Shown one piece after another: positions 1,417 through 51,184 of a stretch of DNA of 64,000 nucleotides (position 1 is its first letter; each line of letters starts with the position of its first letter). The notes beneath the pieces are model-generated. The model did no database searches. It saw nothing but the letters and a program-made list of their open reading frames with translations, and was not told the origin of the DNA. The stretch comes from Armatimonadota bacterium (GTDB lineage: Bacteria; Armatimonadota; SYMT01), in assembly GCA_046292385.1 (NCBI GenBank), contig JBKBRF010000002.1:171653-235652 (forward strand), in the 5' to 3' direction. The position numbers and the translations under genes are program-made.

Positions 1417-3249
<1,833 letters not shown>

Positions 3250-8438: not shown

Positions 8439-9638
8439 TTAGTTATAGGAGAGGATGGCGGAGAGGATGAACCGGCCCTGGTTGTCCGTGGTGCGCCCAC
8501 GCTCCTTGAGGAAGAGGTTCTCGTCCGAGAAGTCGTGGCGGTACTCCAGCCGGGTCTGGAAGTTGTCCGTGAACTGATAGGTGTAGTTGAAGGTGACCCC
8601 GTAGGCCACCGTGCTGGTTCCGGTCCCGAAGCGGAAGCCGTCGCTATCGACCATGAACTCGCCCCGCACGGCGGCGTATGACTTCTCGTTAATGGTGTAC
8701 TTCGCCAGCGCGGCGAGGCCGTACCAGTCCGCGCCCGGCTGCGTGCCGTAGTCGAAGTTGAAGATGTACGACCACCGGCCGCCGGGGTTGTAGAGCGCCA
8801 CCACGTCAATCAGGTTGCGGAACGAGTCGCTCCCACGGGGGCCCGGCTCGTCGCTGCCCAGGTAGTTCACGCTGCCGGACCACTTCTCGTTGAGCGTCTT
8901 CGCGTAGGTGAGCCCGAAGCCCGGCCCAGAGCCGCCGCTCACGCGGTCCCACCCCTGGGTGACGTGTCCCATCACGTAGTCGGTGTCGTTCAGGTAGTGG
9001 TAGACGCGCAGGCCAGTGTGGGTGTACGGGATGGCGAAGCCGAAGAGGATGCTGCGGCTGTAGAGCCAGTTGTCCTTCGGCTCGATCAGCTCCGCGCCGA
9101 TTGGGGTTACCCAGCGGCCGACGTCGACATAGGTGGAGCCGCTGTCGTTCAGGTTGAAGCTAAGGAACGCCTGCTGCACGTGATCCCAGAGGTCGTCTCC
9201 GGAGACACCGCCGAGCGAGGCGCTCTCCGCGAAGTTGGTAAGTCGCCCGGTGGGGCCGAACATCAGGTCGACCCGAAAGCCGAACGGGTCGCGCTGCTTC
9301 TGCAGCCACACGTCGAGAAGGCCGAGGTGCGGGCCGTGCTCATCCTTGATGTCGAACGGCGCGAGCGCGTTGAACGGCGGATCCGGGTTGTTGAAGTTGC
9401 TGGAGTAGTAGAAGTCGACACTCCCGCCGTAGGTGTACTTCGGCGTCGGCTCTTCTTCCACCCCGCGGACCCCTTCCTCTCCGCCCGCGGGCGCCGGGGC
9501 CGGCTCTCCCGCCTGCGCGACCTGGGTTCCCTCCGGGGCCGGGGGCGGCGGCGCCACCGGACTTGGTTCTTCCGCCAGGGCCGGCGCCGCGGTGAACGCG
9601 GCCGCCGCCAGGGCGGAGATCAGCCAGTTCTTGGCCAT
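8439..9638 (-). CDS. Outer-membrane beta-barrel porin (BBP2/DUF1597-like)
   Basis: Signal peptide MAKNWLISALAAAAFTAAPALA; GRWVTPIGAELIE..NW.YSRS.LF....PYTHTG; RLEYRHDFSD; aromatic C-terminal strand. Confidence 0.82.
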   Translation of the reverse strand: MAKNWLISALAAAAFTAAPALAEEPSPVAPPPPAPEGTQVAQAGEPAPAPAGGEEGVRGVEEEPTPKYTYGGSVDFYYSSNFNNPDPPFNALAPFDIKDEHGPHLGLLDVWLQKQRDPFGFRVDLMFGPTGRLTNFAESASLGGVSGDDLWDHVQQAFLSFNLNDSGSTYVDVGRWVTPIGAELIEPKDNWLYSRSILFGFAIPYTHTGLRVYHYLNDTDYVMGHVTQGWDRVSGGSGPGFGLTYAKTLNEKWSGSVNYLGSDEPGPRGSDSFRNLIDVVALYNPGGRWSYIFNFDYGTQPGADWYGLAALAKYTINEKSYAAVRGEFMVDSDGFRFGTGTSTVAYGVTFNYTYQFTDNFQTRLEYRHDFSDENLFLKERGRTTDNQGRFILSAILSYN

Positions 9639-9682
9639 CTTCGTAACCTTTCCTCTCTCTGGACCCCTCTGCGGGATCTCCT

Positions 9683-10273
9683 TTAAGCGAGCGCCACCTG
9701 GCGCCCGCGGGCCCGGGGTGTCCGTGTTGCCCCCGGATCCTCCTGACCCAGCGTCTCCTCCGTCAGCGCGCGGTAGCCCTCGCGGATCTTGCGCACGTGG
9801 TAGGAGACGTTGGCGGCCGTGCAGCCGAGCGACTGGGCCAGCTCTTCCTGCAGGCAGCCCTGGAGCAGGCCGTGCAGGATGTCGCGCTGGGGCCCGCGGA
9901 GGCGGGTGGAAAGCTGTCCCGCCAGCCAGCGGCTGAAAACGTCCTCTTCGAAGCTCTTGCGCTCCGGGATCGCGGCGCCGGCCTCCAGCGACTCGGCCCG
10001 CTCGCGCTGCGAGCGCCGGATCGCCTCCAGCAGCCGCCACTTACCGCGCAGGAAGAGGTAGCAGAGGGGATCGCCGATGTTGACGTCGACCTGCTGCAGG
10101 CCGAGCATCATGCCGAGCCACATCTCCTGCTGCAGGTCGTCCCGGTCCATCCCGGTGAGGGCAGCGTAGTGGCCGGCGGTGCGCAGGACGCGGTCCCGCA
10201 GGAGCTCGGAGATCTGCTCGCGAGCGCGGCTATCGCCTTCCCGAGCCCGCTCGATGACGTGTGACAACTGCAT
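9683..10273 (-). CDS. Sigma-70 family alternative (group 3/4-like) RNA polymerase sigma factor
   Basis: AREGDSRARE start, region 2 DRDDLQQE...RLLEAIRR, region 4 HTH QEELAQSLGCTAANVSYHVRKI. Confidence 0.8.
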   Translation of the reverse strand: MQLSHVIERAREGDSRAREQISELLRDRVLRTAGHYAALTGMDRDDLQQEMWLGMMLGLQQVDVNIGDPLCYLFLRGKWRLLEAIRRSQRERAESLEAGAAIPERKSFEEDVFSRWLAGQLSTRLRGPQRDILHGLLQGCLQEELAQSLGCTAANVSYHVRKIREGYRALTEETLGQEDPGATRTPRARGRQVALA

Positions 10274-11816: not shown

Positions 11817-12972
11817 CCACCACCTCCCGGAACGCCGCCAGCACCGCGTCCAGATCTGCTTCCGTATGCGAGGCGGTGACGCTCGCCCGCAGGCGCGCGG
11901 TGCCGGGCGGGACCGTGGGCGGGCGGATCGCCGGCACCCAGACGCCGCGCTCCTCCAGCCTGCGGGAGACGCGGATCGCCTCTTCCGCCGCTCCGATCAC
12001 CACGGGGACGATCGGCGTCTCGCCGCCCCGCGCGTCGAATCCGAGCGCGCGCAGCCCCTCCGCCAAGCGCGCGGCGCCCCGCAGCACCCGGGCCCGCCGC
12101 CCCGGCTCCCGCGCGGCCACCTGCAGCGCCACGAGGGCCGCGGCCACCGTGGAGGGCGCCGGCGCGGTGGAGAAGATGAAGCTGCGTGCCCGGTTGCGCA
12201 GGTACTCGGCCAGGGTGGAGGAGCCGGCGACGAAGCCCCCCTCCGCCCCGAGCGCTTTGCTCAGAGTCCCCATCTGCACCGCCACCCGGCTCTCCACCCC
12301 CAGCAGCTCCGCGGTGCCGGCGCCCCGCTTCCCCAGTACGCCGGTGCCGTGGGCGTCGTCGACCATCACCCAGGCACCGCGCTCCTCACAGAGGTCGCAC
12401 AGGGCGGGGAGGGGGGCGAGGTCGCCGTCCATGCTGAAGACGCCGTCGGTCACCAGCAGCGCTCGGCGAAAGCGCTCGCGGTCAGCGAGCAGCTCTGCCG
12501 CGTGCTCGGCGTCTCCGTGTCGATAGACCCGCACCTCCGCGCGGCTCAGGCGGCAGCCGTCGATCAGCGAGGCGTGGTTCAGGGCGTCGCTCAGGACCAG
12601 GTCGCCGCGGCCCACCAGCGCCGGGATGGTGCCGACCGCGGCGAGATAACCGCTGGAGAAGAGGACCGCCTCCTCCGCCCCCTTCAGCGCCGCGAGCTCC
12701 CGCTCCAGCTCCGCGTGGAGGGTGAGCGTCCCGGTGGTAAGGCGCGACCCCGTGGCCCCGGCGCCCCACTTCTCCGCGGCGTCCGCGGCGGCGGCGCGGA
12801 CCTCCGGATGCTCCGCCAGCCCGAGGTAGTTGTTCGAGCCGAGGACGATCCGCTCCCGCCCCTCGACCGTGACGCGCGGACCGGCGGCCGACTCGACTCG
12901 CCGGGGGACCCGCCGGAGCCCCGCCGCGGCAAGCCGGTCCAGCTCCTCACGCAGCTCCCGGTCCAGCTCCAT
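11809..12972 (-). CDS. bioF: 8-amino-7-oxononanoate synthase
   Basis: SNNYLGL, DALNHAS, DGVFSMDGD, DDAHG, GTLSKA (PLP lysine), IRPPTVP. Confidence 0.97.
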   Translation of the reverse strand: MELDRELREELDRLAAAGLRRVPRRVESAAGPRVTVEGRERIVLGSNNYLGLAEHPEVRAAAADAAEKWGAGATGSRLTTGTLTLHAELERELAALKGAEEAVLFSSGYLAAVGTIPALVGRGDLVLSDALNHASLIDGCRLSRAEVRVYRHGDAEHAAELLADRERFRRALLVTDGVFSMDGDLAPLPALCDLCEERGAWVMVDDAHGTGVLGKRGAGTAELLGVESRVAVQMGTLSKALGAEGGFVAGSSTLAEYLRNRARSFIFSTAPAPSTVAAALVALQVAAREPGRRARVLRGAARLAEGLRALGFDARGGETPIVPVVIGAAEEAIRVSRRLEERGVWVPAIRPPTVPPGTARLRASVTASHTEADLDAVLAAFREVVDE

Positions 12973-14293
12973 CGCCCTCGGTCTCCAGCCGGATCGCGCG
13001 GTAGAGGATCTCCAGCATCGCGTCGAGATCCGCCTCGGTGCTGGCGAGCGGCGGCATGAAGATCACCACGTCGCCGAGCGGGCGCGTGATCATCCCGAGC
13101 TCGCGGGCCCGCATGCAGACCCGCGCCCCAACCGCCTCCTGCCAGGGGTACGGCTCGCCCCGGGCGGGATCTGCCGCCAGCTCGATCCCGATCATCAACC
13201 CGCACTGGCGGATCTCCGCCACGTGCGGCAGCTCCCGGAAGCGCCGCAGCCCCTCGCGGACCCGGTCGATCTTCGGAGCCAGCCCGTCGATCACCCGCTC
13301 GCGCTCGAAGATCTCCAGGTTCGCCACCGCGGCGGCGCAGGCAAGCGGGTTTCCGGTGTAGGAGTGGCCGTGGTAGAACGTCTTCCGCTCGGCGAAGTCA
13401 CCCAGGAAGGCGGAGTAGATCTCCTCGGTCGTCAGCGTCGCGGCCAGCGGCAGGTAGCCGCCGGTGATCCCCTTCGCCACGCACATCAGGTCGGGCGAAA
13501 CCTCCTCGTGCTCGCAGGCGAACATGCGCCCGGTGCGCCCGAAGCCGGTGGCGACCTCGTCGACGATCAGCAGCGTGCCGTACCGGTCGCACAGCTCCCG
13601 CACGCGCCGCAGGTAGCCGCGCGGGTGGACCAGCATCCCGCCCGCGCCCTGGATCAGCGGCTCCACCACCACCGCGGCCACGGTGTCGCCGTGCTCCCGC
13701 AGCAGCGCTTCCATGCCCTCCGCAGCTTCCTCGGCGGTGGAGAACTGGGCGGGGCACGGCGCGAAGTGCGCCTCGAAAAGCAGGCGACGGAAGATGCCGT
13801 GGAAGAGCGGGATGCCGCCGATGCTGACCGCGCCGACCGTATCGCCGTGGTACCCCTCCGAAAGACCGATGTAGCGCGATCGCTGCTCCTGGCCCCGGTG
13901 GCGCCAGTACTGGTACGTCATCTTCAGCGCGATCTCCACCGCCTCGGAGCCGCTGTCCGAGTAGAAGACCCGCTGCAGCCCCGTCGGGGCGATCCGCACC
14001 AGCCGCGCCGCCAGCTCCGCGGCGAGCGGGTGCGTGAGTCCCAGCATGGTGGAGTGCGCCAGCTTCCCGAGCTGCGCCTGCACCGCCGCGTCGAGCGCCG
14101 GGTGCCGGTGGCCGTGGACGTTCACCCAGAGGGAGGAGTTGCCGTCGTAGTACTCGCGACCGTGGATATCGCGCAGCTTCACGCCGTCGCCGCTCTCGAT
14201 GAAGAGCGGCTCGCCGGCCTCCCAGTCGCGCATCTGCGTGAAGGGGTGCCAGACGTGGCGGCGTTCGAGGGAGGAGAGCTCTTCGGGAGTCAT
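12947..14293 (-). CDS. bioA: Adenosylmethionine-8-amino-7-oxononanoate transaminase
   Basis: Start MTPEELSS; VWHPFTQM, SSLWVNVHGH, YHGDT, DEVATGFGRTG, AKGITGG, HGHSYTGNP. Confidence 0.97.
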   Translation of the reverse strand: MTPEELSSLERRHVWHPFTQMRDWEAGEPLFIESGDGVKLRDIHGREYYDGNSSLWVNVHGHRHPALDAAVQAQLGKLAHSTMLGLTHPLAAELAARLVRIAPTGLQRVFYSDSGSEAVEIALKMTYQYWRHRGQEQRSRYIGLSEGYHGDTVGAVSIGGIPLFHGIFRRLLFEAHFAPCPAQFSTAEEAAEGMEALLREHGDTVAAVVVEPLIQGAGGMLVHPRGYLRRVRELCDRYGTLLIVDEVATGFGRTGRMFACEHEEVSPDLMCVAKGITGGYLPLAATLTTEEIYSAFLGDFAERKTFYHGHSYTGNPLACAAAVANLEIFERERVIDGLAPKIDRVREGLRRFRELPHVAEIRQCGLMIGIELAADPARGEPYPWQEAVGARVCMRARELGMITRPLGDVVIFMPPLASTEADLDAMLEILYRAIRLETEGDGAGPGAA

Positions 14294-14391
14294 GGGGCCT
14301 TCTGGACTGACATCACGGTGCGGTCGAGCCGCAGCCGAACAACCTGCCTGGGGGAGATTCACTCCTCGTCTCGGAGACGGCATTTCTCCGG

Positions 14392-14618
14392 GGATCCACC
14401 CCGCGCCCTCACCGAACGGAGCGGCCCTCCCGCGTGAATGGCCCACCCGCAGTCCTTTCACGCCCTTCGGGCTAGCGGACTGCTCCGGGCGTGCGCTCCG
14501 AGACGCTGCGCTCCGCGATTGTGAGCGGCGGCTTCCACAATGCGACGATTTACGGGCCGCTCCGTTCGGCTCAAGCGACCACCCCTCGCCAGGGGTGGTC
14601 ACAAGTGGAGCCCTGCGG
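14392..14618 (-). ncRNA. Structured repeat element, copy A (candidate ncRNA or non-autonomous mobile element)
   Basis: Hairpin gaccacccct/aggggtggtc; 17-bp long-range stem 14411-14427 with 14554-14570; aligns by eye with copies B, C, D. RNA status is inference. Confidence 0.5.
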
Positions 14619-14731
14619 ACGTGCCTTCGGCACACCCTTCGTGCTCCGCGAGCCGGACCCGTTACCTGTCAGCAGGATGGTTGACGTGGACAGCACTGGC
14701 GGCCACCGACCCGTTCTATCACGATGCGTCG

Positions 14732-15634
14732 TCAGGGTTCGAGGAGGGCGCGGCGGAGGACGCCGCCGGCCTTCTCCAGGCGGGCACGGGAGGTCTCCGC
14801 GTTTTCGCCGGTGAGGCCCATCATGATGGCGAGCTTCGTCTCCCGCCCGCTCTCCTCGAAGAGCCGGGCGGCGGTCGCTTCGTCGACCCCGGCGACGAGC
14901 CGGATCAGCCGGTGCGCGCGGTGGACCAGCTTCTCGTTGGTGGCGCGGACGTCGACCATCAGGTTGCCGTAGGTCTTGCCGATCCGCACCATCGCCAGGC
15001 TGGTCAGCATGTTCAGCACCAGCTTCTGGGCGGTGCCGCTCTTCATGCGCGTGGAGCCGCTGATCGGCTCCGGACCGACCACCGGCGCGATCAGCACGTC
15101 GACGACACCCTCCATCTCGGACGGGCGGTTGGTGGTGACGCCGAGGGTGGGCGTGCCGCGCCGCCGGGCCTCCGCCAGGGCGCCGAGCACGTACGGGGTG
15201 CGGCCGCTGGCGGCGATGCCGCAGACGACGTCGTCCGGCCCGATCTCCAGCTCCGCCACCGCGGCGGCGCCCTGGGCCGGGTCGTCCTCCGCCCCTTCGA
15301 TGCTCCGCCGGAGCGCCGCGTCGCCTCCCGCGATGATCCCGATCACCCGGTCCGGCTCCAGGCCGTAGGTCGGCGGGATCTCGGACGCGTCCAGGCACCC
15401 GAGCCGCCCGCTGGTGCCGGCGCCGACGTAGATCAGCCGCCCGCCCGCGCGGAGCGCCCGCTCCACCAACTCCACGGCCCGCGCGATCTCCGGGATCACC
15501 TCCCGCACCGCCAGGGCGACCTTCTGGTCCTCGTCGTTGAGCCGGTAGAGCGCTTCCTCGATCGGGAGGAGGTCCAGCTCCGTAGTATGGGGGTTCGCCT
15601 GCTCCGTCGTGAGCTGGTCCAGGTTGAGCGCCAC
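14732..15634 (-). CDS. murQ: N-acetylmuramic acid 6-phosphate etherase
   Basis: TEQANP, GAGTSGRLG..DASEIPPTYG, EGAED, ASGRTPY, GPE..SGSTRMKSGTAQK, YGNLMVDV. Confidence 0.97.
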   Translation of the reverse strand: MALNLDQLTTEQANPHTTELDLLPIEEALYRLNDEDQKVALAVREVIPEIARAVELVERALRAGGRLIYVGAGTSGRLGCLDASEIPPTYGLEPDRVIGIIAGGDAALRRSIEGAEDDPAQGAAAVAELEIGPDDVVCGIAASGRTPYVLGALAEARRRGTPTLGVTTNRPSEMEGVVDVLIAPVVGPEPISGSTRMKSGTAQKLVLNMLTSLAMVRIGKTYGNLMVDVRATNEKLVHRAHRLIRLVAGVDEATAARLFEESGRETKLAIMMGLTGENAETSRARLEKAGGVLRRALLEP

Positions 15635-22580: not shown

Positions 22581-25500
22581 CTATCGCTTCCAGATCGTGG
22601 CGTCGAGATTCAATACGGTCTGCGCGAGCACGGCGGCGGCGGCGACTTCCACCGCGGGCAGCGCCGGGTCCGGCTTCCGCTCGCCGATCTTGAGCAGCTT
22701 CTCCGCCTCGGCCGGCGCCTGCCGGAAGAAGTCGCGCTGCTTCTCGTAGAGCTGGGTGAGGAGCCGCAGCTCCTCCGCGCTCGGCTGGCGGCTGGCGAGC
22801 CGACGGAAGGTGAAGCGCACCCGCTCCTCCGGCGAGGCGCCGCCTTCCTTCACCGCCGCCTCGCCGAGCACCCGGGCCGCCTCTACGAACTGCGGGTCGT
22901 TCAGCAGCACCAGCGCCTGGAGCGGCGTGTTGGTGCGGGAGCGGCGCGCCACGCAGACCTCGCGGCTGGCGGCGTCGAAGGCGATCATGTTCGGCATCGG
23001 CGCGGTCCGCTTCCACACCGTGTAGAGGCTGCGGCGATAGAGGTCGCCGCCCACGCTCTGGTGGTAGGCGGGGCTCATGCTGTTCGCCTCCCGCCATAGG
23101 TCGCCCGGCTGGTAGGGGCTTACCGGCGGGCCGCCGGCGCGGCGGTCGAGGAGCCCGCTGGTGGCGAGGGCGGTGTCCCGGATCGCCTCCGCGCCCAGGC
23201 GGTGGCTGGGGCCGCGCGCCAGCAGGTCGTTCTCCGGGTCCCGCTCCTTCAGATCCGGCCGCAGCGCGGAGACCTGCCGGTAGGTGCTGGAGAGGACGAC
23301 CTGCTTGAGCAGCGCCTTCACGTCCCAGCCGGAGCGGACCAGCTCCCGCGCCAGCCAGTCGAGCAGCTCCGGATGGGTGGGGAGCTCCCCCTGCAGGCCG
23401 AAGTTGTCCAGCGTCTCCACCAGGCCGCGGCCCCAGAGCAGCGACCAGAACCGGTTGACCGCCACGCGGGCGGTGAGGGGGTGGTCGGGACGCGTGAGCC
23501 ACTTCGCCAGCGCCAGCCGGTCCGGCTTCGCGCCGGCGGGCAGCGGACCGAGCACCGCTGGGACGCCGCGGCCGACCCGGGTCTGCTCCGTCCGCGGGGC
23601 GTCGTAGGCGCCGCGCGCCAGGACGTAGGTCGGCCGGGGCTGCGGCATCTCCTCCATCACGGCGACTTCGATCTGCGGGTCTTCCCGGGCCCAGACCCGC
23701 TCGCGGCGGGCGGTGAGCGCCTGGCTGACTTTCCGCGTCTCCGGGTCGAGGGCGGAGAGGTAGTACTCGCGGAGCGCCGCCTCGTGCTGCGCGGGCTGCG
23801 CCAGCGCCTCGGCGAGCGCGCGGCCGTCGAAGAGGTGCGCCGCCTCCAGCGGGGTAACGTCGCGAGAGAAGAGGTGGAGGTCGTCGATCCGGCCGCCCTT
23901 GAAGCCCTTGTCCCGGAAGCGCTGCCCGAAGGTGAGGGTGTGGGCGCCGATCCCCTTGTAGATGCGGTCCCGGACGATCTCCACCTCCGCGGGCTTGCCG
24001 TCCAGGTAGATCCGCAGCCCGGCGGCGCGGCTGGAGCCGTCGTAGGTGACCGCCACGTGCGTCCAGGTGTTCGGGGTGGTCGGCCGCTTCGTCCGGACTG
24101 CGATCGCGTTCCCCGGCCAGTGGCGGAAGAGGCGCGCGGTGAGGACGCCCTTCTCCGTCAGGAGGTCGTAGCCGTGGGGGCCGGCGTCGGTGCCGCTGCT
24201 GGCCTGGAAGACCACCGCGGGCTCCGCCGCCACGCGGGGATCTCGCATCCAGAAGGCGATGGTGAACGGCGTGTGGCGGCTGAAGCGGCCGAGTGCGGGG
24301 AAGTGGACGTTGTTCTCGCCGTCGAGCTCGATCGCCTTGCCGGAGCGGCCCTCCACCAGCGGCACCTCGTCCTGACGCGCGCCGTGCTCCGTGGCGCCGG
24401 GAGCCAGGTTGCGCAGGGTGGTGCCGTCAAATGACTCGAAATCGAACCGGCCGGTCAGGTCCGCGAGCTGCGGCTGCCCCGGCGACTTCAGCCAGGCGCG
24501 GAACGCCTCCTCGCGGGCGGCGCGGGTCTGCGCCAGCGTCTTCCGCAGCTCCGCCTCGGCCGCGACTTCCCCCGCGAGCGCCGTCTCCCACTCCTCCGTC
24601 GGCAGGAGCAGTGAGGGCGTCGGCACGATGTCGGCGCGGTCGTAAAGGCCGTACTCGTCGATGCTGTTGAAGAAGGCGGAGAGCGCGTAGTACTCGCGCT
24701 GGGAAAGCGGATCGAACTTGTGGTCGTGGCAGCGGGAGCACTCCAGCGTCAGCCCCATGAAGGCGGTGCCGAGCGTGTTCACGCGGTCCGCCACCCCCTC
24801 CAGGCGCCACTCCTCCGGCACGCTGCCGCCCTCGTTCGTCATCCGGTGGAGCCGGTTGAAGGCAGTCGCCAGCCGCTGCTCGCGCGTGGCGTTCGGCAGG
24901 AGGTCGCCGGCCAGCTGCCAGGTGAGGAACTGGTCGTACGGGAGGTTCTGGTTGAAGGCGCGGACCACCCAGTCCCGGTAGGGCCAGGTGGGGCTGAGCT
25001 GGTCGCTCTGGTAGCCGTAGCTGTCCCCGTAGCGGGCGACGTCGAGCCACGGCACCGCCATCCGCTCCCCGTAGTGCGGCGAGGCGAGGAGGCGGTCGAC
25101 CACCGTCTCGTAAGCGGTCGGGGACCTGTCGGCCAGGAAGGCGTCGACTTCCGCCGGCGTCGGCGGGAGGCCGATCAGGTCGAGCGTGACGCGCCGGATC
25201 CAGTCGGCGCGGGTGGCCTCCGGCGACGGCTTCAGCCCCTCCTTCTCCAGGCGCGCCAGCACGAACTGGTCGATCGGCCCGCGCGGCCACTTCGCGTCCT
25301 TCACCGGCGGCACCGGCACGCGGGCGGGGAGCGGGACGAACGACCAATGCGGCTCGTACTTCGCGCCCTCGGCGACCCACCGCCGCAGCAGCGCCTTCTC
25401 CACGGCGGTCAGGCTCTTGTGGCTGGCGATCGGCGGCATCATGCGGGCCGGCTCCTTCGCGAAGACCCGCGCCACCAGGGCGCTCTTCTCCGGCTTCCCC

Positions 25501-25802
25501 GGCACCAGGGCGCCGCGCGCCACCGCCTCTTCCCGCAGGTCGAGCCGCAGGTTCGCCATCCGCGTGCCCTTGTCCGGCCCGTGGCACAGGAAGCAGTTCT
25601 CCGCCAGGATCGGGCGGATGTCGCGGTTGTAGCTCACCGGAGTGACGGCGGCGCGGGTCGCCGGCCTAGCCGCCGGCTTTTTCTTGGGAGGCGCCACCGC
25701 GGCCAGCGACGATCCCGCCGCCACCGCGAGCACCGCCGCCGCCGCGAGAACCGGGTGCCGGCGCCGTCGCCGCGCGCGTGCTCCTGCCGTACCGTGGTCC
25801 AT
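22581..25802 (-). CDS. PSCyt1 / DUF1549 / LamG / DUF1553 domain protein
   Basis: NCFLCHGPD, CSRCHDHKFDP, LamG WTHVAVTYDGSS...IYLDG, PTHPELLDWLA; 2 bp before DUF1501; start approximate. Confidence 0.92.
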   Translation of the reverse strand: MDHGTAGARARRRRRHPVLAAAAVLAVAAGSSLAAVAPPKKKPAARPATRAAVTPVSYNRDIRPILAENCFLCHGPDKGTRMANLRLDLREEAVARGALVPGKPEKSALVARVFAKEPARMMPPIASHKSLTAVEKALLRRWVAEGAKYEPHWSFVPLPARVPVPPVKDAKWPRGPIDQFVLARLEKEGLKPSPEATRADWIRRVTLDLIGLPPTPAEVDAFLADRSPTAYETVVDRLLASPHYGERMAVPWLDVARYGDSYGYQSDQLSPTWPYRDWVVRAFNQNLPYDQFLTWQLAGDLLPNATREQRLATAFNRLHRMTNEGGSVPEEWRLEGVADRVNTLGTAFMGLTLECSRCHDHKFDPLSQREYYALSAFFNSIDEYGLYDRADIVPTPSLLLPTEEWETALAGEVAAEAELRKTLAQTRAAREEAFRAWLKSPGQPQLADLTGRFDFESFDGTTLRNLAPGATEHGARQDEVPLVEGRSGKAIELDGENNVHFPALGRFSRHTPFTIAFWMRDPRVAAEPAVVFQASSGTDAGPHGYDLLTEKGVLTARLFRHWPGNAIAVRTKRPTTPNTWTHVAVTYDGSSRAAGLRIYLDGKPAEVEIVRDRIYKGIGAHTLTFGQRFRDKGFKGGRIDDLHLFSRDVTPLEAAHLFDGRALAEALAQPAQHEAALREYYLSALDPETRKVSQALTARRERVWAREDPQIEVAVMEEMPQPRPTYVLARGAYDAPRTEQTRVGRGVPAVLGPLPAGAKPDRLALAKWLTRPDHPLTARVAVNRFWSLLWGRGLVETLDNFGLQGELPTHPELLDWLARELVRSGWDVKALLKQVVLSSTYRQVSALRPDLKERDPENDLLARGPSHRLGAEAIRDTALATSGLLDRRAGGPPVSPYQPGDLWREANSMSPAYHQSVGGDLYRRSLYTVWKRTAPMPNMIAFDAASREVCVARRSRTNTPLQALVLLNDPQFVEAARVLGEAAVKEGGASPEERVRFTFRRLASRQPSAEELRLLTQLYEKQRDFFRQAPAEAEKLLKIGERKPDPALPAVEVAAAAVLAQTVLNLDATIWKR

Positions 25803-26001
25803 CCCCTGCTCCTCAATCCCGCGTCGCAAGACCCGGCCGCACCGCCGGCCCGACGGCGCAAACACGCCGTCATGTTCCCCCGCCGCCCTCCGCCTCCCTG
25901 CCGACTCCCGGCGCGGGCAGGTTTAGAGAGTTCGTAGGTCGTTTCACCATCCCGTCACTGCGGATCGGCAGAGCACGGCACCGAAGGCGCCCGCAGGACG
26001 C

Positions 26002-26524
26002 CACTTGTGACCACCCCTGGCGAGATACTGTTGGCGAAATCGGGAAGCTTCTCCGGTGCCCCGCTGGCGCGGGACGCGAAAGCAAGCATTCGCACTCCAC
26101 AGGCTAGCCCGGAAGAGATTCCCACTCGTCGAAAGGGAGACTGCGTCGGGGAAGTCTGTGGAGTGCGGTGGCTTGTGTCGCACGCTGTAAGGTTACGCCG
26201 CTGGCGACGCAGGAAGGTTTTGCCGCAACCAAACTCAAGGCGGCGGAAGAATGCTCGGTTAGTCGAGATCAGCAGCGCGCCGAGGGTCCACCCCGCGCCC
26301 TCCCCACCCGGAGCGGCCCTCCCGCGTGGGTGGCCCTCCGCGGCTCCCCCGTTCGGGGGACAAGCCTTTCACGCTCCGGCTTCGCCTGCGCTAGCGGGCG
26401 CTGCGGGCGTTCCCATCGGTTGGCTGCGCTCCGCGTCCGGAAGCGGCGCCATCGGCGGGACGACGGTTTACGGGCCGCTCCAGGCGGCTCAAGCGACCAC
26501 CCCTCGCAGGGGTGGTCACAAGTG
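26002..26524. mobile_element. ~523-bp composite non-coding unit 1 (MITE-like) bounded by a perfect 18-bp inverted repeat
   Basis: cacttgtgaccacccctg (26002-26019) and caggggtggtcacaagtg (26507-26524); contains module E (26012-26159) and structured copy B; no target-site duplication seen. Confidence 0.5.
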
Positions 26525-26533
26525 AACCCCTCC
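26284..26533 (-). ncRNA. Structured repeat element, copy B
   Basis: 13-bp stem 26307-26319 with 26472-26484, P1 hairpin, closely similar to copy A. Confidence 0.5.
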
Positions 26534-26655
26534 AGCCCTGCCTCCGGCAGCGCTTCCGGGCCTCGCAGGTCACCACGCCGCGGGGCGCGAAGCCGGTCGT
26601 GCTGCCTGGCTTGAGGCGACCCGCCGGCTGCCGACCGTGCTGAGACCGGAGGCCC

Positions 26656-26886
26656 CCGGAGGGTGCCAATTGTGACCACCCCTGGCAGGGGTGGTAGCTC
26701 GAAGGGTCGGGAGGCAGCCCGTGAGCTCCCCTGCCGACACGGGTTACGCTTCCTGGCGCGGGAAGAGCTTACCGGAGTCTACTCCCGCAGCGGCCTGCTA
26801 ACGGAGCGCAGCGGAGTGTGAAAAGGCCGCGGAGGGCCTTCGTCGCGGGAGGGCTGCGTCCCGGCACGAGGGCTCGGGGTCGGGTC
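26656..26886 (+). ncRNA. Structured repeat element, copy C
   Basis: P1 accacccct/aggggtggt; stem 26706-26720 with 26851-26865; gcggcct-GCTA...GTGAAA-aggccgc core. Confidence 0.5.
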
Positions 26887-27192
26887 ACGGGATCGCGACT
26901 GCATCTCGCAGAGAAGCAAAGACGCCTCGAGACTAGCCCCTCTCGCTTCACACGCTCCACGCGCGCAACCGCCGGCAGAAGCTGCGGATCCCGACAAGAT
27001 TCTGACGGTGAGTAGTACAGACTGTACCGGAGCCGGCTCCCTGCCTACGAGAGGGAATTCCTCCGGGGCCGGCCTGTGGAGTGCGAATGCTTGCCCCCAG
27101 TACGGGGGCTTGCTTTCGCGCCGCGCGCCCGCGGGGCCACCGGCGCAGCCTCCCGATTTCTCCAACAGTATCCGGCGAGGGGTGTTAGCCCA
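26669..27192. mobile_element. ~524-bp composite non-coding unit 2, a diverged inverted counterpart of unit 1
   Basis: Copy C followed by reverse module E (27017-27184), which aligns with 26012-26159; right end degenerate. Confidence 0.45.
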
Positions 27193-27393
27193 ACGGGGAG
27201 ACAATCTACCACTCAATTCCAGAGCTATCGAAAAACCCCTTGCACACGAAGGGCTCACCCCGGCATCTCTCACTATCTGGGGAAACGACCGCTCCGTCGC
27301 CCCACAGCAAAACGAGCACCGAAGCGGTCCTGGGGGCACCTGTCCCGGGGATCGCGGAGAAAAGTCGAGCCGCATCCCGGGGAGGGGTGGCCT

Positions 27394-28083
27394 ATGCGAC
27401 GTGCTTTCACGCTGCTGGAGCTGCTGGTCACGGTCGCGATCCTTTCAGTCCTGGCCGGGATGCTGTTCCCGGTCTGCGCGCAGGTGCGGGAGAAGGCGCG
27501 GCAGAGCACCTGTCTCAGCAACCTCCGCCAGGTGGGGATGGGTCTGCAGATGTACCTGCAGGACTCGGACGACTGCCTGCCGGACACCCCCTGGGCCGAT
27601 CTGCAGTTCACGCCTTCCCCACCCGCGCCCGCCGGGCCGGGGCCGTCGTCACTGCGGCCCTACACGCGGCTCGGCTGCCTGGTCGCCGCCTTCGAGCCGT
27701 ATATCCGGGACCCCCGCGTCTGGCTCTGCCCCTCCATCCCGGCCTACGCGGGCGGCTCCGCCTGGAGTGACGGGCTCTACGGCGCCTATCGAGTGGGGGG
27801 CCGGGACTACCCGGAGCGCGGCCTATCCAACTACCTGAGCGCCAAGCTCGCGGAGCCGGACCCGGCGAAGCCGCGCTGCGCCCGCGGAAAGCCGGTGCTG
27901 GCGATCGGCACCGGGATGCCGGCGGACGAGCACCTGCTCTACTGCGGCTTCTACTCCCGCTCCTGGGACCCGGCGCCCTGGCGCCGCGGCGCGAGCGTGC
28001 CGCCGGCGAACGGCTGGCAGCCGCACCACCTGCGCCGGGTCGAGCTCTTCTTCGACGGTCACGCGAAGGCGGTCATTCCGTAG
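27394..28083 (+). CDS. Prepilin-type N-terminal cleavage/methylation protein (DUF1559-like)
   Basis: MRRAFTLLELLVTVAILSVLAGMLFPVCAQVREKARQSTCLSNLRQ; C-terminal H...ELFFDGHAK; GGAGG SD. Confidence 0.9.
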   Translation: MRRAFTLLELLVTVAILSVLAGMLFPVCAQVREKARQSTCLSNLRQVGMGLQMYLQDSDDCLPDTPWADLQFTPSPPAPAGPGPSSLRPYTRLGCLVAAFEPYIRDPRVWLCPSIPAYAGGSAWSDGLYGAYRVGGRDYPERGLSNYLSAKLAEPDPAKPRCARGKPVLAIGTGMPADEHLLYCGFYSRSWDPAPWRRGASVPPANGWQPHHLRRVELFFDGHAKAVIP

Positions 28084-49608: not shown

Positions 49609-50337
49609 ATGAAGGCCCTACTCTTTTCACTCTTCGTGTCTACCCTGTTCCTGCTGCCGGCGCTGGCGCAGCGGGAAGACCGCGCGGACGAGCCGGTGCT
49701 GGTGGTCAGCGGCAACTCGGAAGTGCGCGTAGCGCCGGACCTGGCGATCGTGCGCCTCGGCGTGACCCGCATCGCCAGCACGGCGCAGCAGGCCCAGGCG
49801 GAGGTGAACCAGGCCGCCCAGGCGATCCTGGAGAGCGTGCTGCGCCTCCAGGTGCCGAGGGAGGCGGTGCAGACCTCCCAGCTCACGATCCAGCCGCTCT
49901 ACGAGCAGCGTCAGCCGCGCCCCGGACAGGAGCCGCAGGAGCCGCGCGAGCCGCGCATCGTCGCCTACCAGGCGTCGAACGTCGTCACGATCCGCCTCAC
50001 CCGCCTGGAAACCGCCGGCCCGGTGATCGACGCCGCCCTGAAGGCCGGCGCCAACCGGCTGGACGGCCTCTCCTTCGGCCTGCAGAACGACCGCGAGGCG
50101 CGGCAGCGCGCGCTCACCGAGGCAGTGCGGGAAGCCCGGCAGAAAGCGCGCACCATGGCGGAGGCGCTCGACGTGCGCCTGGTGCGGGTGGTAGAGGCGA
50201 TCGAAGGCGGCTACGTACGCCCGATGGAGTTCGCCGCCGAACGCGCCATGATGGCCGCCGGCGACGCCGGCACTCCCGTCTCACCCGGAGAAGTCTCGGT
50301 CCACGCCAACGTCACCCTGCGCTACCGGATCCAGTAG
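49609..50337 (+). CDS. SIMPL domain (DUF541) protein
   Basis: VSGNSEVRVAPDLA, GAN..DGLSF, AVREARQKARTMAEAL, PGEVSVHANV; AGGAGGT SD. Confidence 0.93.
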   Translation: MKALLFSLFVSTLFLLPALAQREDRADEPVLVVSGNSEVRVAPDLAIVRLGVTRIASTAQQAQAEVNQAAQAILESVLRLQVPREAVQTSQLTIQPLYEQRQPRPGQEPQEPREPRIVAYQASNVVTIRLTRLETAGPVIDAALKAGANRLDGLSFGLQNDREARQRALTEAVREARQKARTMAEALDVRLVRVVEAIEGGYVRPMEFAAERAMMAAGDAGTPVSPGEVSVHANVTLRYRIQ

Positions 50338-50393
50338 GCGCTGAGAGGCTTCGGCGGCTCCGCGGCCGAGACCATTGGCTCCCGCAGGCAAAG

Positions 50394-50626
50394 CCGGAGG
50401 GAGCCAGTTGTGACTACCCCTGGGACGTCAGGGGTGGTCGCTCGACGGCGGACGATTCAGCCCGTGAACCAGGCTGCTGTGGCGGTAGAGCGCACCGGCG
50501 CGGGAAGAGCGCAGCGGTACGCACTCCCGGAGTGGCCTGCTAGCGCCGGAGGCGCGTGAAAAGGCCGCGGAGGGCCCTCGTCGCGGGAGGGCTGTAATCG
50601 TCCGACTAGGGCGCGGGGGCGAACCC
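50394..50626 (+). ncRNA. Structured repeat element, copy D
   Basis: P1 gactacccctg/caggggtggtc; stem 50449-50463 with 50589-50604; core very similar to copy C. Confidence 0.5.
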
Positions 50627-50658
50627 GCGGTGTCGACGCTGCTCCACGCCGGAAGGTC

Positions 50659-50713: not shown

Positions 50714-51184
50714 TTAGCGGCTCGAAAGCATCGGTCCCAGCACCTCCCGCGTCTTATCGACCGCCTGCGCGGCCGGCGTGAGGTCCCAGACCACCGGGAT
50801 CAACAGCACTCCCAGCAGCGCAAGCGTGGAGTAGCGGAGCGCCGTGAGGCCGCCGGAGCGGTCCAGACGCCAGGTGAGCCCGCAGAGCACCACCAGGACG
50901 GCGGACCACGCCGGGAAGAGCCAGAACGCGCTCTGCACCAGCTTCGCCGGGCCGTAGCCCAGCATTCCGAAGGTGAGCAGCGCGGTCACCGCGAAGACGA
51001 GGATGCTCGCCGCGGTGTCCCAGGGCTGCAGCACGGCGCGCAGACGCGCGGCCGCCGCCTTGCGGGCGAAAGCCTGCCGCTGCCGCCAGTTCGGCTTGAA
51101 TTCGGCGCCGCAGACCTCGCACTTCAGCGGCGAGCTGCCCTGCATCTCCACGTACGCCGTGCATTCCTTGCACTTCACGTACAT
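50714..51184 (-). CDS. Hypothetical membrane protein with N-terminal zinc ribbon
   Basis: CKEC...CEVC then three hydrophobic helices; AGGAGG SD. Confidence 0.75.
   Translation of the reverse strand: MYVKCKECTAYVEMQGSSPLKCEVCGAEFKPNWRQRQAFARKAAAARLRAVLQPWDTAASILVFAVTALLTFGMLGYGPAKLVQSAFWLFPAWSAVLVVLCGLTWRLDRSGGLTALRYSTLALLGVLLIPVVWDLTPAAQAVDKTREVLGPMLSSR

Follow-up and report, generated by a model that had tools for sequence, protein, structure and literature searches.

What is the structured sequence that recurs in a 64,000-nucleotide stretch of an Armatimonadota genome (assembly GCA_046292385.1, contig JBKBRF010000002.1, positions 171,653 to 235,652; hereafter "the window")? An earlier note, made from the letters of this stretch, described a folded, non-coding element in four copies and considered that it might act as an RNA or as single-stranded DNA (ssDNA) handled by an HUH/RAYT-type transposase. 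We show here that the element belongs to a family with a high copy number, whose members lie strictly between genes and have a strand-specific, covarying fold in three genera. As to its nature, we tentatively prefer one explanation, to which we give somewhat less than an even chance. It is that the element is a giant non-autonomous mobile repeat that resembles repetitive extragenic palindromes (REP) and bacterial interspersed mosaic elements (BIME), and that its core folds as ssDNA for an HUH-type enzyme supplied in trans.

A dispersed family with many diverse copies

We scored the window's copies with R1, a covariance model trained on 40 diverse copies from elsewhere in the genome. R1 finds exactly four full copies in the window (A to D; Table 1), with scores of 145-225 bits; the fifth match has an E-value of 0.33. 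The copies lie where the earlier note had placed them, with R1 matches that run ~15-30 nt longer at the 5' end. This added stretch holds an extra hairpin, which we named P1. The four copies align over ~270 columns with a mean column identity of 73%, and the layout described previously is visible in the alignment: a hairpin after TTGTGAC, a long stem ending in GCCC-GTRA, an inner stem around GCTA...GTGAAA, an CGCGGGAGGGC arm and an AGGGCKCGGGG tail.

However, the element is not limited to four copies. In the genome under study (G000; 7.04 Mb in 91 contigs), nhmmer with the four-copy profile gives 144 matches, 129 of them above 100 bits. R1 gives 146 matches, and 150 candidates were scored. Matches to the repeat family total 35.6 kb, or 0.5% of the genome. 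The region 26284-26886, which had been presented as two of the four copies, is one head-to-head doublet within a composite repeat of ~800 bp whose left end is truncated. The mean pairwise identity among copies is 67%, and the 117 full copies fall into 84 clusters at 85% identity. Clustering separates three core types, namely B (52 copies), C (37 copies) and D (22 copies).

Outside of G000, the element is found in two other genera of the same taxonomic family, with 14 R1 matches in genome G005 and 8 in G006. R1 has no match in the other four of the seven genomes of this family. Across the phylum, 3 of 151 sampled genomes carry the element, G000 included, and it is absent from the other 148. A BLASTN search of 40 relatives yielded only matches of 40-60 nt with E-values of ~1e-4 and was uninformative, so the covariance model is needed to detect copies in relatives. 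A scan of metagenome contigs for conserved motifs gave nine loci, of which six hold seven R1 matches. The same kind of scan in a genome collection gave a single locus, in a metagenome-assembled genome labelled Trinickia; it has no R1 match, and we attribute it to chance. Phage and plasmid collections contain no match to the element.

The comparison with Rfam that the earlier note had proposed was run and returned no family. With Rfam 15, no match in the whole window reaches the gathering score, and the region 26000-27200 gives just three matches, with E-values of 7.5-9.3 and scores far under the gathering cut-offs. Our literature searches did not find a description of such an element.

A strand-specific fold under selection

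Pair cells of the fold were counted in an alignment of the 117 full copies, and shuffle and column-slide tests were made on 40 diverse copies. The core has ~275 nt and ~9 helices. From 5' to 3' it consists of hairpin P1, a single-stranded YUGU, a GC-rich hairpin P2 with a 10-bp stem and a loop of 3-4 nt, a closing helix P3 and a 15-bp helix P4. Beyond P4 come a variable region, inner helices around the conserved motifs GCUAGCG and GUGAAAGG, and a G-rich tail. YUGU, in the form of UUGU or CUGU, stands directly 5' of P2 in 113 of the 117 copies. The pairing of P1 is based on the 117-copy alignment; RNAalifold did not give it for alignment A2, in which the three types align poorly.

The covariation of stems that had been reported for the window is borne out by the 40 diverse copies. 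In these copies, 96.8% of cells pair, as compared with 85.0% after shuffling, and none of 500 shuffles reached the observed value. When the partner column is slid, pairing falls to 34-50%. Both sides have changed at 22 of 49 pairs, versus 9-13 with slid partner columns. A mutual-information scan added one further pair, which extends P3 (CG 70, UA 24, AU 19). Over the 117 copies, 7704 of 8401 pair cells are canonical, and the strand-consistent G-U pairs seen previously reappear as an excess of 564 G-U over 128 A-C cells. One U-G pair in P3 is kept in 116 of the 117 copies in G000.

Private changes, i.e., those limited to one copy, give the same picture. When polarised by the two nearest copies at a divergence of at most 15%, such changes led to G-U 27 times and to A-C 5 times, and double changes at pairs restored Watson-Crick pairing in 11 cases and broke it in 5. 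The rate of change at paired sites is half that at unpaired sites (0.028 vs 0.057 per site). The predicted stability is higher for the sense than for the antisense strand in all 117 copies, with RNA and DNA parameters alike. The asymmetry of private changes and the uniform sense-strand stability thus support selection on the single-stranded fold of one strand, which is the strand that the earlier note had indicated.

The fold is also preserved between genera. In copies from other genera, 91.0% of cells pair and 25 of 49 pairs have changed on both sides. The U-G pair of P3 is present in all 18 distinct rows from these genera, and a G-U pair in 14 of 14 relatives. Tips in the form of C-GNA-G triloops are found on P8 in 64 of 66 copies and on P1 in 50 of 113. 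According to PMC3201870 (see also PMC13037366), d(GNA) loops closed by C:G form exceptionally stable DNA mini-hairpins, with the C:G closure contributing ~3 kcal/mol. We also considered a kink-turn at GCCC-GUGAA/GGGA-GGGC, and dropped this reading because other genera do not keep GUGAAC.

Such a fold raises the alternative that the core works as a structured RNA, one that either travels with mobile DNA or was domesticated from it, and that would serve as a guide, scaffold or ribozyme-like molecule for a protein encoded elsewhere. An RNA would account for a multi-helix fold of this size with the conserved unpaired motifs GCUAGCG, GUGAAAGG and CGCGGGAGGGC, for the wobble pairs retained across genera, and for the maintenance of the fold by selection in highly divergent copies. 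However, the tips are GNA triloops and not GNRA or UNCG tetraloops, and Rfam has no match. We consider an RNA possible but doubtful, and return to it below where other evidence bears on it.

Head-to-head doublets of unlike types

Many copies occur as doublets: there are 29 head-to-head pairs, with 45-100 nt between the heads, and just one partial tail-to-tail pair. A type could be assigned to both arms of 24 doublets; 17 of these combine types B and C, 7 combine B and D, and none is homotypic. Within a doublet, the arms share only 61% identity. Scores are higher for paired than for single copies (median 174 vs 154 bits, p = 8e-4). Head-to-head pairs of two types are likewise found in G005. In G006, we observed tandem runs of three full copies, plus partial copies, in the same orientation, spaced 430-600 nt apart, that are not head-to-head doublets (Table 1).

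When doublets are folded, a median of 73-80% of the minimum-free-energy pairs join the two arms. However, the arms have the low identity given above, and all covariation lies within arms.

The head-to-head arrangement would permit divergent transcription of both sense RNAs, and an RNA role would have every copy possess its own, unrecognised promoter, with doublets transcribed outward from their centre. However, three scans found no sigma-70-like promoter in or beside the four window copies, and the conserved doublet centre contains no TA-containing -10-like motif. Contigs of the only RNA run that matches this region cover 26024-26175, which belongs to a second repeat described below, and 27466-27500, not the cores; since they are contigs, they are uninformative on transcription.

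Position and orientation relative to genes and replication

Gene calls based on the GC content of third codon positions (GC3) gave 5017 genes covering 79% of the genome, and none of the 129 strong copies overlaps a gene. The neighbours are unrelated housekeeping genes in the window (encoding aminotransferase, SIS-domain, PSD1/PSCyt, prepilin-like and SIMPL proteins) as well as in G000, G005 and G006. Relative to single copies, the downstream gene has the same direction in 34 cases and the opposite direction in 40, and the upstream gene in 34 and 34. These counts contradict the suggestion that the element might be a regulatory leader. We rejected a 5' leader or an untranslated region (UTR) of paralogous genes, given the unrelated downstream open reading frames and the random orientation.

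Contig C40 carries eight copies on one strand. A prophage structural module at ~17.5-35 kb, which encodes the large terminase, an SPP1-type portal, the capsid and proteins of head and tail completion, holds six of these in its intergenic gaps, each in antisense to the genes of the phage. Because these six copies are antisense to the operon, a leader, a UTR or another cis role within the transcript is ruled out. The random orientation of single copies relative to genes and the antisense prophage copies also count against an RNA. The same-strand copies on C40 prompted us to consider an integron attC array, but the intervening genes are the prophage module, and other copies are dispersed in both orientations (intI was not searched for).

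The intergenic location could also reflect cis elements that serve the host and are kept by host selection, such as stabilisers of transcript ends, terminators, insulators or platforms for nucleoid proteins. Roles of this kind have been proposed for REP and BIME. The absence of all 129 strong copies from genes agrees with such a role, as does the fact that most copies are old and unique, by the clustering given above, and still fold. Pairing preserved by private changes fits selection at each site, and the family persists in three genera. However, a role in transcripts predicts that copies run in the direction of the upstream gene, and neither the even counts nor the prophage copies bear this out. 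No T-run terminator was found after the core, a binding site in double-stranded DNA does not explain the excess of G-U over A-C, and the fixed-end subfamily at 22 loci that we describe in the next section requires a mechanism of dispersal. We regard host-serving cis elements as improbable.

Orientation is related to a different property, namely GC skew. Among single copies, 36 have their folding strand on the strand that is locally richer in C, versus 10 with the reverse (within 15 kb on either side, |skew| > 0.01; p = 1.6e-4). With a strand-balanced GC3 skew, from which the effect of gene strand is removed, the ratio is 53 to 23. This bias of roughly 3:1 has the same direction in types B, C and D. 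Doublets have no skew bias (15 vs 11). An orientation bias that is tied to replication and not to neighbouring genes points to a process at the level of DNA and is a further point against an RNA.

In G005, two CRISPR arrays with 46 and 32 type I-E-like repeats flank cas1, and four copies are situated between repeats at the arrays' trailer ends (Table 1). The 5' ends of these copies are flush with a repeat border, and one bordering repeat is extended to a 21-bp perfect palindrome. As these copies are sense within the arrays, they would be part of the precursor CRISPR RNA, which is a point in favour of an RNA. We rejected a general link to CRISPR, as the two arrays in G000 either have no copy closer than 11.8 kb or are on a contig that lacks copies.

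Fixed ends in a young subfamily

The doublet in the window is in a young subfamily of 11 composites that are 80-90% identical, and homology in this subfamily extends past the cores to fixed ends. Written in one orientation, the element starts with CTGTACTACTCACCG... (the T module) and ends with ...GGTTGCGGCATCAGCCGCGCTGTG (the M3 module). Terminal inverted repeats (TIRs) are lacking, as neither of the T and M3 ends is an inverted copy of the other; a hairpin lies directly inside each end. The left boundary has CTGT, unaltered in 17 of 28 elements and as variants otherwise, and the right end is ...CTGT(G) in most of the M3 modules listed. The same T and M3 ends enclose three forms at ~22 loci (12 composites, 7 B-only and 3 C-only elements). 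Three forms with shared ends are the pattern expected of internal-deletion derivatives of a transposable unit.

We did not find a duplication of variable sequence flanking subfamily elements. In outer flanks, two or more CTGT motifs occur in 7 of 57 cases, as compared with 0.5% of random intergenic 40-mers. Flanks with repeated CTGT contain tracts of 7-10-nt units such as TCTGTGTCCC (e.g., C8:52792-52832 and C10:72578-72617).

In the window, the composite is bounded on the right at the 27021 region, where homology among the 11 composites ends. On the left, the outer ~15 nt of the M3 module of core B are replaced by a second, unrelated repeat, which we call element 2 (Table 1) and which ends in ...GATTTCGCCAACAGTAT. 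The end of element 2 has 59-70 occurrences when 1-2 mismatches are allowed, and it lies within 400 nt of 67 of the 182 contig ends, which makes element 2 the main cause of assembly breaks. In ~13 cases, element 2 interrupts the P2 loop of a core. These insertions occur in both orientations and apparently duplicate 8 bp (CTGGCGAG). Its ends are identical in both orientations.

Element 2 is a reminder that the copies might be ordinary miniature inverted-repeat transposable elements (MITEs) of the DDE type, with TIRs and target-site duplications, whose apparent fold results from GC-rich palindromes. In favour of this, the copies are small, do not code for protein and are dispersed between genes, and element 2 behaves in this way in the same genome, with its identical ends in both orientations and its 8-bp duplication at hairpin loops. 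However, the ends of the subfamily are not mutual inverted repeats, and duplication of variable flanking sequence is missing. Moreover, the covarying pairs are internal and nested, not end-to-end, and the strand asymmetry of wobble pairs is unexpected for a double-stranded DNA transposon. An ordinary MITE is, in our opinion, very improbable.

Search for a partner enzyme

The earlier note suggested a check for adjoining partner genes, but no tnpA(REP)/IS200, TnpB or reverse transcriptase gene was found beside any copy. TnpB (PF07282) has no match in the seven genomes of the family, so that we rejected a TnpB omega RNA. A retroelement was rejected because the search for reverse transcriptases (RVT_1) gave no candidate in G000. 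IS110 genes are present twice in G000 (on contigs C91 and C6) and once in G006. At the IS110 loci, a filter-free R1 search gives only matches at chance level, the best having an E-value of 0.09. The cores have no 7-mer in common with the element ends, junction or target. An IS110 bridge RNA was rejected because G005 lacks IS110 genes, no R1 match is nearby and there is no common 7-mer. The lack of these guided partners, and of 7-mers that cores share with ends or target, also weakens the case for an RNA.

Genes for Y1 HUH transposases are found in six of the seven family genomes, including all three that carry the element; those of G000 include C51:25920-26261 and C22:55627-55965. A RAYT gene flanked by the element, i.e., a REPtron, does not occur among the Y1 loci tested.

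The preferred explanation and points against it

The earlier note left a choice between an RNA and an ssDNA substrate of an HUH/RAYT-type enzyme, and the evidence leans to the second option, that of DNA and a mobile repeat. We favour the DNA side because of the random gene orientation, the lack of promoter-like sites and the antisense prophage copies, and also because of the skew-linked orientation, the C-GNA-G triloops, and the ends and deletion derivatives of the subfamily.

According to our preferred explanation, a giant REP/BIME-like mobile repeat, the fold would act in ssDNA exposed during replication. It would be recognised and cut by an enzyme that is provided in trans, the most likely candidate being a Y1 HUH transposase of the RAYT/IS200 kind. 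Recognition or cleavage would take place at YTGT, which is invariant at the foot of P2 and recurs at the element ends. A heterotypic doublet would put one correctly folding core on each strand.

It is important to consider several points that weigh against this explanation. To begin with the element itself, the hairpins of the two ends are unlike each other, and in composites the strand that bears both end signals has the C-type core in antisense. We saw no empty site, excision junction or circle, and we deduce mobility solely from how the elements are built. No HUH substrate known to us comes near this fold in size and intricacy. With its ~9 helices, conserved internal loops and U-G pair that is invariant across genera, it looks like a structured RNA, and the G-T pairs and GNA loops are compatible with RNA too.

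Further points concern the enzyme. Y1 genes are also present in three of four sister genomes without the element, and none of seven Y1 loci in five genomes has an R1 match at E-values of up to 10. A RAYT-like gene on contig C51 is flanked by a different, small hairpin repeat. Since 67 of the 182 contig ends run into another repeat, an autonomous partner may be unassembled.

The C51 gene encodes a Y1 (RAYT/IS200-like) transposase of 145 amino acids and is flanked by a 39-nt inverted pair (GCGAGGGGTT...AACCCCTCGC; Table 1). A 10-mer of this repeat has 22 occurrences in the genome. The locus looks like a classical small REPtron that is unrelated to the large element.

The orientation bias also poses a difficulty. 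According to PMC6006769, IS200/IS605 elements act on the lagging-strand template. If the usual skew rule (G>C on the leading strand) holds, a folding strand on the C-rich strand is on the leading-strand template. The sign of the bias would thus be opposite to the simplest expectation of a lagging-strand template. We speculate that copies with an exposed folding strand may be lost faster, which would explain this sign.

We also mention a broader possibility, which we regard as conceivable rather than probable: the element might represent a new class of structure-dependent mobile element, a ~275-nt multi-helix single-stranded module in obligate heterotypic doublets. As substrate or cofactor, the module itself would serve a new system of transposition or recombination, which would act either via an HUH enzyme with an unprecedentedly large DNA substrate or via an RNA-dependent recombinase other than TnpB, IscB, IS110 and reverse transcriptase.

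Features of the window and of related loci

Positions are collected in Table 1. Copy B has an extra GC-rich hairpin of ~20 nt (window 26336-26362), inserted directly after the GUGAAAGG motif. This insertion is present in 2 of the 12 members of its cluster, the other carrier being C10:72882. The gene adjoining copy B encodes a PSCyt1/PSCyt2/PSD1 protein, an architecture typical of Planctomycetota that is found here in an Armatimonadota genome.

Table 1. Positions of the window copies, their neighbours and related loci in other contigs and genomes. Positions are those of the window unless a genome or contig is named.
Feature	Position	Strand	Evidence or remark
Aminotransferase gene, neighbour of copy A	12947-14293	-	Pfam
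Core copy A, B-type, single	14378..14650	-	R1 214.3 bits, E 2.9e-44
SIS-domain gene, neighbour of copy A	14732-15634	-	Pfam
Gene adjoining copy B	22581-25865	-	1094-aa PSCyt1/PSCyt2/PSD1 protein with laminin-G domain
Element 2, first copy	26009-26219	-	Second, unrelated repeat
Truncated 3' extension (M3 module) of core B	26220..26269	-	Alignments of 11 composites and 12 B-type copies, table of M3 ends
Core copy B, B-type, left arm of doublet	26270..26567	-	R1 144.8 bits, alignments
Doublet centre, between the two core heads	26568..26625	.	Asymmetric; conserved among 11 composites of the subfamily
Core copy C, C-type, right arm of doublet	26626..26900	+	R1 214.3 bits, alignments
3' extension of core C, ending in inverted T terminal module (...GGTGAGTAGTACAGA)	26901..27021	+	Table of T ends
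Element 2, second copy	27022-27240	+	Second, unrelated repeat
SIMPL gene, convergent with the 156-aa gene around copy D	49609-50337	+	Pfam, GC3-based gene calls
Core copy D, D-type, single, in convergent gap	50362..50639	+	R1 224.5 bits
156-aa gene, convergent with the SIMPL gene	50714-51184	-	Pfam, GC3-based gene calls
Small hairpin pair at the C51 Y1 gene	G000:C51:24420-27761, locus positions 1424-1462 and 1957-1995		39-nt inverted pair
Copies in CRISPR arrays of G005	G005:C3:822000-841900, locus positions 8561-9708 and 14239-14942	sense to arrays	Four copies
Tandem runs in G006	contigs C47, C236 (locus L062 472-1783; L065/L068)		Same orientation

Comparison with known systems

The most informative comparison is with REP, BIME and REPIN (REP doublets forming hairpins), which are textbook examples of selfish or domesticated repeats that have persisted for millions of years within one bacterial lineage. 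To our knowledge, all described members are small hairpins. According to PMC3116915 and PMC6006769, inverted doublets of these repeats are over-represented and better conserved than singlets, compensatory changes occur, and E. coli BIMEs contain Y and Z subtypes. Our element is similar in that it is extragenic, has more than 100 copies with several subtypes in one genome, and forms inverted doublets that are over-represented and better kept than singlets. As in a BIME, the doublet consists of two subtypes and a specific linker, comparable to the Y and Z2 units of E. coli. As in REP, hairpins are preserved by compensatory changes and a conserved tetranucleotide stands at the 5' foot of a GC-rich hairpin, here P2. 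The family also persists vertically within a lineage. However, a REP is an imperfect palindrome of 20-40 nt, whereas the unit here has ~275 nt and ~9 helices, and its tetranucleotide is YTGT instead of GT[AG]G. The arms of its doublets share only 61% identity, and covariation, though not the predicted minimum-free-energy pairs, supports folding of each arm and not of one long hairpin. Moreover, we found no RAYT gene flanked by the element.

IS200/IS605 elements and their non-autonomous derivatives, palindrome-associated transposable elements (PATEs), also lack TIRs (PMC6006769). They have one tetranucleotide in common between left flank and right terminus, a pattern that the element matches in part, with exact CTGT at the left boundary of 17 of 28 elements. 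Hairpins inside both ends on one strand, a strand-specific fold and an orientation bias tied to replication are additional similarities to IS200/IS605. However, the end hairpins of our element are dissimilar, and its conserved part is a large internal core, not the ends. No tnpA or tnpB copy with the element's ends was found, TnpB is absent from all seven genomes, and the sign of the skew bias is opposite to that expected of lagging-strand-template targeting.

Among RNAs, HEARO and omega RNAs (associated with IscB and TnpB) and IS110 bridge RNAs are comparable, with ~200-300 nt, covarying multi-helix folds, multiple copies and a link to mobile DNA. Rfam includes models for HEARO and IS605-orfB. 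Unlike these RNAs, the element has no Rfam match, no cognate protein gene beside the copies examined, no variable guide-like segment matching ends or targets, and no detected promoter.

ERIC/IRU, Correia, RUP and BOX repeats resemble the element as dispersed, foldable intergenic repeats of 100-300 bp, but have TIRs or modular boxes and simple hairpin folds. We know of no structured intergenic repeat that has heterotypic doublets together with covariation of such depth.

The significance of the element depends on how the fold works. As DNA, it would surpass in complexity all other natural ssDNA structures on which selection is known to act, and would give access to a new HUH-type reaction. As RNA, it would form a class that is abundant and undescribed, in a phylum that has received little study. 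In either case, 129 diverse copies in one genome are an unusually rich data set for covariation, and the element family and the second repeat shape where assemblies of these organisms break. Relative to known repeats, the element combines REP-like population features with a unit ten times larger and a fold as elaborate as that of a riboswitch or ribozyme, which is preserved across three genera.

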